From contig CAAGEE010000002.1 in the NCBI GenBank assembly GCA_900768815.1, forward strand, positions 176,468 to 240,467: a stretch of 64,000 nucleotides of DNA, in the 5' to 3' direction. Positions 28,587 to 32,080 of this stretch are shown here, piece by piece; the stretch's first letter is position 1, and each line of letters starts with the position of its first letter. Below the pieces are notes generated by a model. That model searched no databases. It had not been told where the DNA came from and saw only the letters and a program-made list of their open reading frames with translations. Position numbers and translations under genes: made by a program. Source of the stretch: Bacilli bacterium. GTDB lineage: Bacteria; Bacillota_I; Bacilli_A; RF39; UBA660.

Positions 28587-29264
28587 TTATTTTGTACAAT
28601 ACTTGCTATAAAATCTTGACGGTATGAAGCTAATTAAATTAATTATTATTAAAATCAGTAGAGAAATTAGATAGATGCATATAGGAATATTATATAGATT
28701 TATGAATATTGTTGTTACAATGAGTAAAACAGGAAATATAGTTAAGTATTTTTTTAATCTTTCTAAACTTAATAAATTTAATATTAAAGTCATTATTAAA
28801 GATAAGTTGGTAAAAAATAATATGTCTTTTAGATATATATAAAGATAGTTTATGTATGAAATATTAGAGTTGAATACTATAAATAAAATGACTACTATTA
28901 TATTAATGATTGTTCGCATAGAAAATATGTAAAATATGAAGTTTAACCATTCTAAAAGAACAAACTTTTTGCTATTTGACCGCAACATAATATATTCTAT
29001 TGATGATTTAATGTTATCTACAAATGTTTTTATAATGAAATAAATGATTATTAAATAACTAATTATTTTTATTAAAGTATAAAATATATTTACTCTATAT
29101 ATACTTCCTAAGCCTAGATAACAAATGTAGTCGTCAACCTCAAGAAATGTTATAGTACTTCCATTTATGCATAAATATATAATAGTAAAAAGTACTTGCA
29201 TTAGAAAAAATTTCATTAAATTCGTATTTATTTTTATAGTATTTTTTAAAAATATGTATTTCAT
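28587..29264 (-). CDS. Polytopic membrane protein, putative transporter or immunity component
   Basis: There are five or six hydrophobic helices. It lies in the same operon as the ABC ATPase. Confidence 0.45.
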   Translation of the reverse strand: MKYIFLKNTIKINTNLMKFFLMQVLFTIIYLCINGSTITFLEVDDYICYLGLGSIYRVNIFYTLIKIISYLIIIYFIIKTFVDNIKSSIEYIMLRSNSKKFVLLEWLNFIFYIFSMRTIINIIVVILFIVFNSNISYINYLYIYLKDILFFTNLSLIMTLILNLLSLERLKKYLTIFPVLLIVTTIFINLYNIPICIYLISLLILIIINLISFIPSRFYSKYCTK

Positions 29265-29281
29265 ATATTATTCCTTATTTA

Positions 29282-30040
29282 TTATTCATCTATTTTTATT
29301 TTTTTGAGATTTGTTGCAATGGAAGTTAGTGTTATTAATAATAATGCTAAGATACACATAAAAATTATAAGATTTGATATTTCTTTTATAAATGAAACAT
29401 GTGGTATCGGAGTTAGGTAATATTTAAAATTCAAACTTTTTAATGTAAAATTACTAATTATACTTGATGAAACTGGGGCGCAATAATATATAACAGCAAT
29501 TATCAGGTAATAAATGTATCCAACTATTTTTCCCAACAATTTATATATGCATATCCCAATTAGTGCTAGAATATTTGTAACCATATATAGTTTTATCATG
29601 AAAAAAGCACTGTATGTTATATATGATATATTATAATATTCAACTTGAGTAAAACTAATCATTCCAAAATAACGGAGACTAACAAATAAAATCCCTACGG
29701 CTAGAGCTGATACGTATATTATTAAATTTCCTAAGGATACTGATATTAATAAGTACTTTAGATACTTTTCTTTGGCTGAATATCTTATCAGAAACGAGTA
29801 ATTTTTATCATAATATTCTAAAAAAATACTGGATGATATAAATAGGATAATCATCGTTGGAAATATAAACATTGAACTACTTATATAATCAAAAATGGCC
29901 TCGGAATATGAAATGTTTGGCATGAGATTAAATGTACATAAAAAACAAGTTAGTAACACTGTTAAAAATATGACTTTGAATTTTTCTGTATCTAAAATAT
30001 ATTTAGTATATGAAAATGTTCTTTTTATATTATTTAACAT
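29282..30040 (-). CDS. Polytopic membrane protein (ABC-2-type permease-like)
   Basis: There are six hydrophobic helices. Its start overlaps the upstream ATPase gene. Confidence 0.45.
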   Translation of the reverse strand: MLNNIKRTFSYTKYILDTEKFKVIFLTVLLTCFLCTFNLMPNISYSEAIFDYISSSMFIFPTMIILFISSSIFLEYYDKNYSFLIRYSAKEKYLKYLLISVSLGNLIIYVSALAVGILFVSLRYFGMISFTQVEYYNISYITYSAFFMIKLYMVTNILALIGICIYKLLGKIVGYIYYLIIAVIYYCAPVSSSIISNFTLKSLNFKYYLTPIPHVSFIKEISNLIIFMCILALLLITLTSIATNLKKIKIDE

Positions 30041-30671
30041 TATACTTTTTTAATTTTCCTTCTTCAAATTTATATGTTTCATCTGCTATACTTTTGATAT
30101 CTTCTTTTATGTGGCTTGTTATAATTATTAACTTGTCTTGTTCTTTCATTTTTAATAATAAATCACGTATTTTCTTTACGGATTTTTCATCAATACCATT
30201 AAATGGCTCATCTAGAATTATGACTTGTGGGTTTTCCATTATAGCTTGAGCAATACCTAACTTTTGTTTCATTCCGAGAGAATATTCACCATATTTTTTA
30301 TCTTTTTCTGCATATAGGTTACATTTCTTTAAGGCATCAAATATAGCTTCATCAGTAATTTTATTTTGAATACTCGCTAGTAACTTTAAGTTTTCATAAC
30401 CAGTTAAGCTTGGAATGAAAGATGGTGTTTCAATTAAGGCTCTAGTATCTTTTGGAAAAGAATTTGCTTTAATATAATCAAAACCATCTTGTAAAATGCA
30501 ACCATCGGTTGGAATATAAAAGGCGCATAACATTTTTAAAAACACACTTTTTCCAGAGCCATTTGCTCCTACTATTCCGTATATTTTTCCTGATTTAAAT
30601 GAGATATTAACGTTATCTACTACAGTTACATTTTTAAACTTTTTGGATAAGTTTTTTACTTCGATTTTCAT
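30030..30671 (-). CDS. ABC transporter ATP-binding protein
   Basis: It has Walker A GANGSGKS, the signature LSGGMKQK and Walker B IILDEPFNGID. Confidence 0.8.
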   Translation of the reverse strand: MKIEVKNLSKKFKNVTVVDNVNISFKSGKIYGIVGANGSGKSVFLKMLCAFYIPTDGCILQDGFDYIKANSFPKDTRALIETPSFIPSLTGYENLKLLASIQNKITDEAIFDALKKCNLYAEKDKKYGEYSLGMKQKLGIAQAIMENPQVIILDEPFNGIDEKSVKKIRDLLLKMKEQDKLIIITSHIKEDIKSIADETYKFEEGKLKKYNVK

Positions 30672-30679
30672 ATTTTTAT

Positions 30680-31627
30680 CTACCTTTCACACATATTGAT
30701 TAATTTTTCTTTATTGGTATATGAACGTATGGCTAAAAATAAACTTATTAAATATAAAATGATATTAAAAATTAGATGTGCATACATATTGTCTATACCG
30801 TGCCAAGTATATAGATTCATTAAATTGAAATTATTTGGATTAAGATTGAAATAATAACTTCCTATATTACCAAATATTATTATACTAAAACACCAGATAA
30901 AAAATATAAATAGCTCACTTTCAAGTAAGGCGACAATATAATTTTTTGTTTTACTTTGTACAATTAAACCAATATTTATGTATAGACCAACTTCTGAAAG
31001 TAAGGTAACAAAATACACTATCGGAAAAACTTTATTATTTATAAATTGGATATTTGGTAAGGCAAGGTTAAGTGTCTGATCGGTTACTGGATTCAGATTT
31101 TTTCCAGAGATGATATAAGAAATTATAAATGTAACGATTACAAATATAGGAATTATAAATATGTTTTTATAGGTTGTTTTAAATATGTATTTTATATATT
31201 CTTTATAATCTTTTCTTAAGCAGTAATTTTTAATCACGTTGTTTTTTAATTCCCTCGATATTATATATAGAAACGGAAATAGTATTATAATTGGTGTACA
31301 TATAATAAATAAATAATCATTGTTAACAAAAAAATTATAATATACATGATAAGTACTATATGGTAAGCCTTTAGAATTACTTATTTTTTCACAAGTAGTA
31401 TTATTTATATTAAATTCTTTGTTTTTATTTTGAAAATTTTCTTTTTCTTGTTCACTTGATAATGATTGGTACTCTTCGCATAAAGTGTATTGTTCTTTTA
31501 CCCAAGCTTGACTTTCTTTTGTTTTTATTGCTATTTTATACCAGCAAAATATGCAATATATTAAAAAGATTAAGCATAATATAATGAAAATTTTGCTGCT
31601 AAACAGTTGGTTCTTTTTATATTTCAT
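30680..31627 (-). CDS. Polytopic membrane protein
   Basis: There are about six TM helices and an ~80-aa extracytoplasmic loop after TM1. Confidence 0.45.
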   Translation of the reverse strand: MKYKKNQLFSSKIFIILCLIFLIYCIFCWYKIAIKTKESQAWVKEQYTLCEEYQSLSSEQEKENFQNKNKEFNINNTTCEKISNSKGLPYSTYHVYYNFFVNNDYLFIICTPIIILFPFLYIISRELKNNVIKNYCLRKDYKEYIKYIFKTTYKNIFIIPIFVIVTFIISYIISGKNLNPVTDQTLNLALPNIQFINNKVFPIVYFVTLLSEVGLYINIGLIVQSKTKNYIVALLESELFIFFIWCFSIIIFGNIGSYYFNLNPNNFNLMNLYTWHGIDNMYAHLIFNIILYLISLFLAIRSYTNKEKLINMCER

Positions 31628-31678
31628 AATTTTCTCCCATTAAAGTAATAGAGGCTATATTTTATCAAACTGTTTAAT

Positions 31679-32080
31679 TTATTGGTCTAAATACCAACCT
31701 CCATTATGTGAAGCATTGCAAGGACTTACTACGTCGTTTTTAATATATAAATTATATGCTGTTGCGGTATAGGTACTTCCTTTATCATTTCCCCAGCTAC
31801 TTGTGGCACCGTTAGTTACTTGTATCCAAGCAGACTCTCCGCCTCTTTCTGACTTTACCATAACAGCAACAGTGTTACGATTACCGGTACAACTATTTAC
31901 CGTTCCTATATTGTAGTACGATTGAGCCCCATATCTTTCCTTTATTTTAGGTCCCAATTGTGTCACACCTTTAAGAGCTTTTAACGTGATACTATAATGT
32001 CCAGCTGATACAAACGCTGAAATGCTAGTTAGTGTTATTGTAACTAGTAAGATACTTAATGTTATTTTTAAATATTTCAT
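31679..32080 (-). CDS. Small secreted protein, a bacteriocin-like candidate
   Basis: A Sec signal peptide, MKYLKITLSILLVTITLTSISAFVSA, precedes a 107-aa mature domain rich in G/S/T/N/Y/W with two Cys. It is the first gene of an operon with an ABC ATPase and three membrane proteins. Confidence 0.4.
   Translation of the reverse strand: MKYLKITLSILLVTITLTSISAFVSAGHYSITLKALKGVTQLGPKIKERYGAQSYYNIGTVNSCTGNRNTVAVMVKSERGGESAWIQVTNGATSSWGNDKGSTYTATAYNLYIKNDVVSPCNASHNGGWYLDQ

Follow-up and report, generated by a model that had tools for sequence, protein, structure and literature searches.

What does a small secreted protein do when its gene heads a closely packed set of genes for an ATP-binding cassette (ABC) ATPase and three membrane proteins, and four of the five products belong to families without a Pfam or NCBIfam model? 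The question is raised by positions 28587–32080 of a 64,000-nucleotide (nt) stretch of a Bacilli bacterium genome (contig CAAGEE010000002.1; the whole stretch is hereafter called the window), where five co-oriented genes lie in the order S-H-F-E-G, S encoding the secreted protein, F the ATPase, and H, E, and G the membrane proteins (Table 1). The initial annotation had compared S with the Sec-dependent bacteriocin lactococcin-972 (Lcn972) and regarded the downstream genes as an expanded version of the Lcn972 gene layout. As described below, the cassette most probably serves either toxin production with self-protection or antimicrobial protection, although it does not belong to the Lcn972 family; more specifically, we favor, tentatively and at a little less than even chances, the reading that S represents a new family of Sec-secreted protein toxins with a LanFEG(H)-like immunity transporter, both functions being predicted. 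We found no published description of this cassette in the literature.

The five open reading frames are real genes rather than chance ones, because the five-gene order recurs in at least seven unrelated genomic contexts (S identity, 27–96%) and every gene shows a ratio of nonsynonymous to synonymous divergence (dN/dS) within 0.03–0.29. By gene, the ratio was 0.04–0.12 for S, 0.03–0.09 for F, 0.10–0.19 for H, 0.13–0.25 for E, and 0.20–0.29 for G, with 0.055 and 0.079 for flanking genes; all five genes are under purifying selection, which is strong for S. Identity to the window across cassettes consistently followed the order F > S > H ~ E > G, with G being the fastest-evolving component. S is the first gene and is separated by 51 nt from the translationally coupled transporter genes, in which the H/F, F/E, and E/G distances are 8, −11, and 17 nt, respectively, the start of E overlapping the end of F by 11 nt. 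At synonymous sites (dS), F differed from the other genes: between the window (30030–30671) and its closest syntenic relative (L012:10957–11598, L-numbers being our handles for related loci), its dS was 0.22, three to four times below those of S, H, E, and G (0.68–1.0) and also below those of the flanks (0.53–0.59), a pattern that may point to a recent conversion or exchange event involving the ATPase gene, or else to strong constraint on its codons.

The S precursor starts with a Sec signal peptide (MKYLKITLSILLVTITLTSISAFVSA, followed by GH) that has an A-x-A-type cleavage site and no lipobox, and a Lys-rich n-region with a hydrophobic signal peptide is found in 40 of 40 S-family members. 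The mature protein (107 residues; 11.6 kDa; pI 9.15) is rich in Gly (13), Ser (10), Thr (10), Asn (10), Tyr (8), and Trp (3), contains two Cys, and ends in NGGWYLDQ. The gene coordinates, the signal peptide, and this composition agree with the initial annotation, as does the presence downstream of a dedicated, co-oriented ABC ATPase and three polytopic membrane proteins. These features directly support the predicted export of S, in unmodified form, by the Sec pathway. Relatives of S are few: six (67–96% identity) were retrieved from 5.8 billion protein clusters by a word-indexed search and 42 from 1.84 billion representatives by exhaustive searching with HMMER, and a single match was present among 185,579 species genomes (L007, a metagenome-assembled genome labeled 'Bacilli bacterium'). 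Nearly all are proteins of 130–150 residues with a signal peptide, and they share three conserved elements, i.e., an N-terminal 'G-I-x-L-P-A-x-x-G' strand, a central 'Q-x-Y-x-N-x-G-T-x-N-x-x-T-G-N' hairpin, and a C-terminal 'H-S-G-x-W-Y-L-D' strand (H-S/N-G-x-W-Y-L-D). No Pfam or NCBIfam model matched S at E ≤ 1. The central hairpin (YGAQSYYNIGTVNSCTGNRNTVAVMVKSE; residues 49–78, window 31847–31936) resembles the last two strands of the Ig_7 (PF19081) repeats of Bacteroidota. Homology of S to the Ig_7 repeat proteins was considered and rejected, as the likeness is that of a β-hairpin motif of about 30 residues scoring 7–12 bits per repeat and not a domain homology; repetition of the motif produces misleadingly strong summed E-values against multi-repeat proteins of the type IX secretion system.

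A first AlphaFold model of S, built from seven close sequences, was unusable (predicted local distance difference test score (pLDDT), 52), and the rerun with 40 sequences gave a model with a pLDDT of 87.3 and a predicted template modeling score of 0.74, in which eight β-strands follow the signal helix. The fold comparison, which covered PDB structures, placed this model nearest to GOLD domains, PirA, the Yersinia pseudotuberculosis mitogen YPM, carbohydrate-binding modules (CBMs), and the collagen-binding and PPC domains of collagenases, with further matches to endospore-appendage (Ena) subunits and the C-terminal domain of Clostridium perfringens enterotoxin. Since this fold is very common and the sequence identities are mostly 5–15%, the matches indicate shape and not ancestry. 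For the same reason the likeness to PirA, a component of the PirAB binary toxin, and to YPM is one of shape only; both are 12–13% identical to S, share no motif with it, and have other genomic partners. The model directly supports the description of S as a compact, basic, eight-stranded jelly-roll of the binding-module type, predicted to be folded outside the cell. Cys64 and Cys121 behave as a pair, in that 19 family members have both, 21 have neither, and none has just one; these counts are not independent if all members with the Cys pair belong to one clade, as they may. This paired occurrence suggests a Cys64–Cys121 disulfide, which probably stabilizes S in this subfamily and would support folding outside the cytoplasm.

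The proposed kinship with Lcn972, a bacteriocin that binds lipid II and inhibits septum formation, was examined at the levels of family model, profile, fold, and operon. Superficially, S shares with Lcn972 and streptococcin (scbABC) the properties of a small, β-rich, unmodified, Sec-dependent protein that is encoded first and linked to an ABC ATPase and membrane protein(s), and Lcn972 is also a β-sandwich (PMC11796350). However, none of the 40 family members, S included, matched PF09683 at E ≤ 1, nor did S match TIGR01653, whereas the Lcn972 precursor used as positive control, whose mature part is identical to PDB entry 2LGN chain A, scored 55.5 bits on PF09683. Alignment of the S-family profile with Lcn972 by hhalign gave a probability of 0.6%, confined to the signal peptides, and the S profile matched no PDB sequence, 2LGN included. 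In shape, S is a jelly-roll as in binding modules and not 2LGN-like, 2LGN not being among the fold matches listed for the model; mature S has 107 residues and eight strands, as compared with the 66 residues of mature Lcn972. The ATPase is of another subfamily, with F scoring 102 bits on TIGR03608 (Lcn972-type ATPase) against a cut-off of 254.85. An Lcn972 operon comprises three genes, for the bacteriocin, one membrane protein, and the ABC ATPase, of which the latter two are thought to give immunity and occur in populations also as immunity-only variants (PMC11796350, PMC4055356), whereas three small unclassified membrane proteins (225–315 residues) are encoded here, none of which matched the models of bacteriocin-associated membrane proteins. 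Together, the tests rule out S as a Lcn972-family bacteriocin with an expanded immunity system, leaving this reading next to no probability, and LanFEG with one additional membrane protein is the more fitting description of the layout. What remains of the original proposal, as the best-supported reading, is its broader notion of a system for antimicrobial action or self-immunity, while the link to the Lcn972 family is refuted.

The ATPase and the layout of the transporter genes resemble those of lantibiotic protection. F is an ABC ATPase (PF00005 ABC_tran, E = 1.9e-27) with the signature YSLGMKQK, the Walker B motif IILDEP, and Glu81 (in ALIETPSF) at the Q-loop position; Glu81 aligns with the Q-loop Gln in nucleotide-binding domain (NBD) 2 of ABCA4 and is one position off in the alignment with NBD1. 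Among 13 ATPases of this and related cassettes, the position is occupied by Glu in 11, by Asp in two, and by Gln in none. LanFEG systems are type V ABC exporters of F2:E:G composition, for which no experimental structure has been reported and the mechanism is yet to be established; a Glu replacing the Q-loop Gln, termed the E-loop, is their most conserved specific element, and NisE and NisG are only ~20% identical (bioRxiv 10.1101/2025.10.09.681468, the preprint on NisFEG from which we took the E-loop definition). The sequence directly supports the assignment of F as an ABC ATPase with the E-loop characteristic of LanFEG exporters, and its best NCBIfam match is TIGR03740 (lantibiotic protection ABC ATPase), albeit at 178.2 bits, far under the cut-off of 309.75. 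In an arrangement that fits that of NisFEG, NukFEG, and GdmFEG/EpiFEG, the ATPase gene is followed by two genes for membrane proteins of about 225–250 residues with ~6 transmembrane segments (TMs) each by hydropathy, with overlapping start and stop codons, and E and G barely resemble each other. H is predicted by hydropathy to contain one N-terminal TM, a loop of ~75 residues placed outside the membrane and bearing invariant Cys50 and Cys79, and ~5 more TMs. H is comparable, by analogy only, to LanH (GdmH/EpiH, NukH) or LanI; the accessory membrane proteins GdmH and EpiH contribute to producer immunity (PMC5945643).

In contrast to these architectural likenesses, H, E, and G matched no Pfam or NCBIfam model, those for LanE/LanG and ABC-2 membrane proteins included, and Pfam scans of every member of their alignments gave nothing recurrent. 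PDB profile searches with the three proteins gave nothing meaningful, and paralogy among them was undetectable by hhalign (probabilities, 0.2–8%). The cassette also differs from LanFEG loci in that no lantibiotic precursor or LanB/C/M/T/P gene accompanies it, lanA/B/C/M/T/P-like genes being absent from the window flanks and from all related loci, and in that the linked product is a folded, Sec-exported protein and not a modified peptide. Judged by its sequence, the transporter thus resembles LanFEG in architecture and E-loop, but is not a sequence member of that family.

The S-H-F-E-G order was found in very different surroundings. In the lineage of the window (L012, L016, L017, and L028), the cassette keeps the same site, with a DUF362 gene on one side and a TetR/MMPL pair on the other; in L001–L006 (S 74%), it is flanked by NMT1/ABC and helix-turn-helix (HTH) genes and lies near transposases or a recombinase; in L009–L011 (S 43%), it lies beside SpoVA genes and a Mob gene; in L032–L034 (H 52% identical), beside PBP5 and RelA genes; and in L035 (H 29% identical), beside uppS, cdsA, and rseP. 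The complete order is also present in L007. For the most distant S relatives, carried on short contigs (L008 and L015), the next gene is an H homolog, and the contigs of the distant members P0017, P0025, P0028, and P0033 are too short for the full context. A few kilobases (kb) downstream of the first cassette, L001–L005 carry a second one (L001:13531–16402), encoding S (138 residues), H (295), E (256), G (230), and an ATPase, in that order. Since S, H, E, and G of this tandem cassette are each ~26% identical to their cognates, the five genes constitute an ancient unit with a shared history of inheritance. The region between the two cassettes encodes an XRE-type HTH regulator with a membrane anchor, together with one or two secreted proteins of small size. 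The flanks of the cassette change from lineage to lineage, and its neighbors include genes for transposases, recombinases, or Mob proteins. Altogether, these contexts directly support S-H-F-E-G as a conserved, horizontally mobile, accessory module, and H as a fourth component co-evolving with S, F, E, and G. No empty insertion site was seen, because all contigs with an identical flanking DUF362 protein also carry the cassette.

This distribution bears on two explanations in which S would not be a toxin. In the first, the cassette would serve envelope housekeeping or assembly, as an ABC-2-type exporter of a lipid-linked or hydrophobic component with S as its glycan- or lipid-binding partner and with no antagonism. 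The closest solved relatives of F, namely ABCA4, ABCA1, and ABCA3, which export lipids or hydrophobic compounds, fit this idea, as do the resemblance of S to CBMs, collagen-binding domains, and GOLD domains, the stable chromosomal location of the window cassette, and the purifying selection on all genes. A housekeeping function is nevertheless at odds with the extremely sparse and patchy occurrence of S given above, with flanks that vary by lineage and are associated with mobile elements and plasmids, and with the divergent tandem paralogs and orphan H or H-F-E-G sets, which are accessory traits of competition or defense; we consider it quite unlikely. The second, an anti-phage defense system or prophage-encoded module, would agree with a mobile, patchy accessory cassette and with the matches of F to ATPase models of PADLOC. 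Those matches are, however, generic P-loop ones, whereas S, H, E, and G matched no PADLOC model; tblastn of S against phage and plasmid records gave no match, and viral contigs yielded no relative when scanned for patterns taken from the alignments of S and H. We know of no defense architecture that combines a secreted protein with an exporter, and the explanation appears highly improbable.

Incomplete sets were found as well. L020 contains H-F-E-G (5992–9013) between valS and a glmM-like (phosphoglucosamine-mutase-like) gene, with no S within 6 kb. In L029 (6001–6951; also in L030 and L031), a lone H homolog (27% identity; hidden Markov model (HMM) E = 1e-79) directly follows ftsK, the other four cassette genes being absent from its vicinity, and this solitary occurrence suggests that H can act alone. 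In L009–L011, a direct duplication of ~1.7 kb with 100% identity, covering H and most of F, brackets S to give H'-F'-S-H-F-E-G (L009:5135–6840 and 7422–9127). Three independent assemblies share this duplication, which is either recent or a substrate for recombination. Protection-type genes devoid of the secreted gene would parallel the orphan immunity known for bacteriocins, as exemplified by the 27.5% of pneumococci that retain scbBC without the bacteriocin gene (PMC11796350).

More distant counterparts occur on plasmids, where ATPases with 44–53% identity to F are encoded in cassettes with several unannotated membrane proteins; three of these cassettes are headed by a small signal-peptide protein. 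The cassette of the C. perfringens cpb2 plasmid NZ_CP102304.1 (L022:2013–5636) encodes a 141-residue signal-peptide protein ending in SGSWSPDN, three membrane proteins, and an E-loop ATPase, and it sits between recombinase genes, adjoining the β2-toxin gene cpb2; the 141-residue protein did not match the S profile significantly (HMM E = 0.5). The small cassette protein of a 10-kb MobQ plasmid of Priestia did match it (E = 4e-5). Neither the Priestia 'ABC transporter permease' nor the C. perfringens proteins scanned matched anything in Pfam and NCBIfam. On a 62.8-kb plasmid of C. tyrobutyricum (L026:5161–5679) and on Bacillus mycoides pDx14.2 (L025:2589–3122), the cassette is immediately followed by a dedicated gene for signal peptidase I (lepB), which fits with heavy Sec export of a cassette product. 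A possible S pseudogene upstream of a C. tetani plasmid cassette, recognized by a 10-residue motif (E = 0.07), was not used.

Another explanation takes the cassette as an antimicrobial-peptide resistance module (for 'immune mimicry' or detoxification), in which H-F-E-G would expel, or shield against, an exogenous envelope-targeting compound from other bacteria, and S would be an extracellular binder, sensor, or modulator, resembling LanI with LanFEG, or YsaD/YxeA with BceAB-type transporters. YsaD and YxeA (TIGR01655), small secreted proteins that are co-transcribed with resistance ABC transporters and modulate the BceAB-type module, provide the precedent for secreted modulators (PMC7438565), and here too a small signal-peptide protein is the first gene product, linked to an ABC transporter related to antimicrobial peptides. 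The LanF-like ATPase with its E-loop, the binding-module fold and high conservation of S, and the absence of biosynthetic, processing, or dedicated export genes beside S in the window are all in keeping with such a role, and the transporter-only loci would suit an optional, accessory S. On the other hand, S matches neither TIGR01655 nor a LanI model, and NisI and SpaI are not among the fold matches listed. The transporter has no FtsX-type permease and is not of the BceAB type, and a two-component sensor is adjacent to the cassette or linked to it in none of the contexts seen. As S is neither a lipoprotein nor anchored, it would make a leaky, shared protective factor, and its co-diversification with H, E, and G in tandem cassettes and small plasmids is more typical of toxin/immunity pairs. 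We regard a resistance module as the main, though unlikely, alternative.

The toxin/immunity reading is favored because of the predicted secretion of S, the LanF-like ATPase, the coherence of the module, its mobile distribution, the orphan protection genes, and the position of S as first gene under purifying selection. In the mechanism that we propose, S would act against competitors as a Sec-dependent, bacteriocin-like protein by binding a target in their cell envelope, and F2-E-G, helped by H, would shield the producer by keeping S off its own membrane target or removing S from it, a protection modeled on LanFEG (with LanH or LanI) acting on lantibiotics; the extracellular Cys–Cys loop of H would be the likely contact for S. 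A more far-reaching form of the proposal, in which the S family is a new class of folded jelly-roll protein bacteriocins of Bacillota with a four-component E-loop ABC protection system (H plus F2EG) and H is the specificity receptor or decoy, is possible but doubtful.

Several observations weigh against an antagonistic role of S. Its fold matches belong to a common fold at moderate Z-scores, imply neither homology nor a killing mechanism, and are mostly binding modules and not membrane-damaging domains; none of the S homologs is annotated or known for antimicrobial activity. LanFEG systems are known for handling small lipid II-binding peptides and not folded 11-kDa proteins, and a secreted first gene followed by FEG is also the order of spaIFEG-type immunity, as the resistance module predicts. 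The shortfall of F against TIGR03740 and the lack of any curated match for H, E, and G, both described above, count in the same direction, as do the stable chromosomal position of the window cassette in its own lineage, the lack of a regulator obviously dedicated to it, and the weak ribosome-binding site at the S start codon.

If S is indeed antagonistic, the family would constitute new protein antimicrobials of narrow spectrum, produced by anaerobic Bacillota of the gut and elsewhere and already paired with their cognate protection cassette. ABC transporters of the E-loop (LanFEG) type would then handle folded proteins in addition to lanthipeptides, and the cassette would be the first case of a LanFEG-type immunity machine that is devoted to a folded protein instead of a lantibiotic peptide. 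For annotation, a small secreted protein ending in H-S-G-x-W-Y-L-D, three orphan membrane proteins, and an E-loop ATPase form a recognizable cassette that recurs on chromosomes, with distant relatives on plasmids of Clostridium, Priestia, and Bacillus.

Table 1. Genes of the S-H-F-E-G cassette and adjacent transcription signals (window coordinates)
Feature	Position	Strand	Description
S	31679..32080	-	133-residue precursor of a secreted, basic protein of 107 residues, predicted jelly-roll; signal peptide, residues 1–26
H	30680..31627	-	315-residue polytopic membrane protein; candidate recognition or immunity component
F	30030..30671	-	213-residue ABC ATPase, ABC-2 / LanF type
E	29282..30040	-	252-residue membrane protein, ~6 TMs; no curated family
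G	28587..29264	-	225-residue membrane protein, ~6 TMs; no curated family
Terminator-like hairpin and T-run	32187..32211	-	10-bp stem with 3 GC pairs, then TTTTTTATTA; would end the upstream DUF362 gene
Promoter-like site	32127..32155	-	-35 TTGACT (32155-32150), 17-nt spacer, extended -10 TG-n-TATACG (32135-32127)

With a terminator-like hairpin after the DUF362 gene and a promoter-like site before S, the cassette looks like its own transcription unit; the hairpin, as we infer from its sequence, would end DUF362 transcription and so set the cassette apart. The putative promoter was read directly from the sequence and is absent from the listing of the consensus scan because its -10 element ends in G. 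No RNA family of Rfam was found across the whole window. The G+C content of the window is ~27%, and the part coding for E and G (28001–30000) has the lowest value (23.1%) and differs from the regions around it also in its positive GC skew; both features may derive from membrane-protein composition or from foreign origin.

Just upstream of the DUF362 gene, two neighboring genes (33159–37897) encode fused ABC ATPase–FtsX permease proteins of 812 and 765 residues (MacB-like), a pair that is syntenic in L012 and L028 but in other lineages does not belong to the cassette. The downstream side is occupied by a divergent gene for a TetR regulator (27965–28531, plus strand) and a gene for an MMPL-family transporter (25719–27803, minus strand), beyond which a secreted, coiled-coil-rich protein of 548 residues is encoded (24095–25741, minus strand); together, the genes at 24095–28531 look like a separate efflux or export unit.

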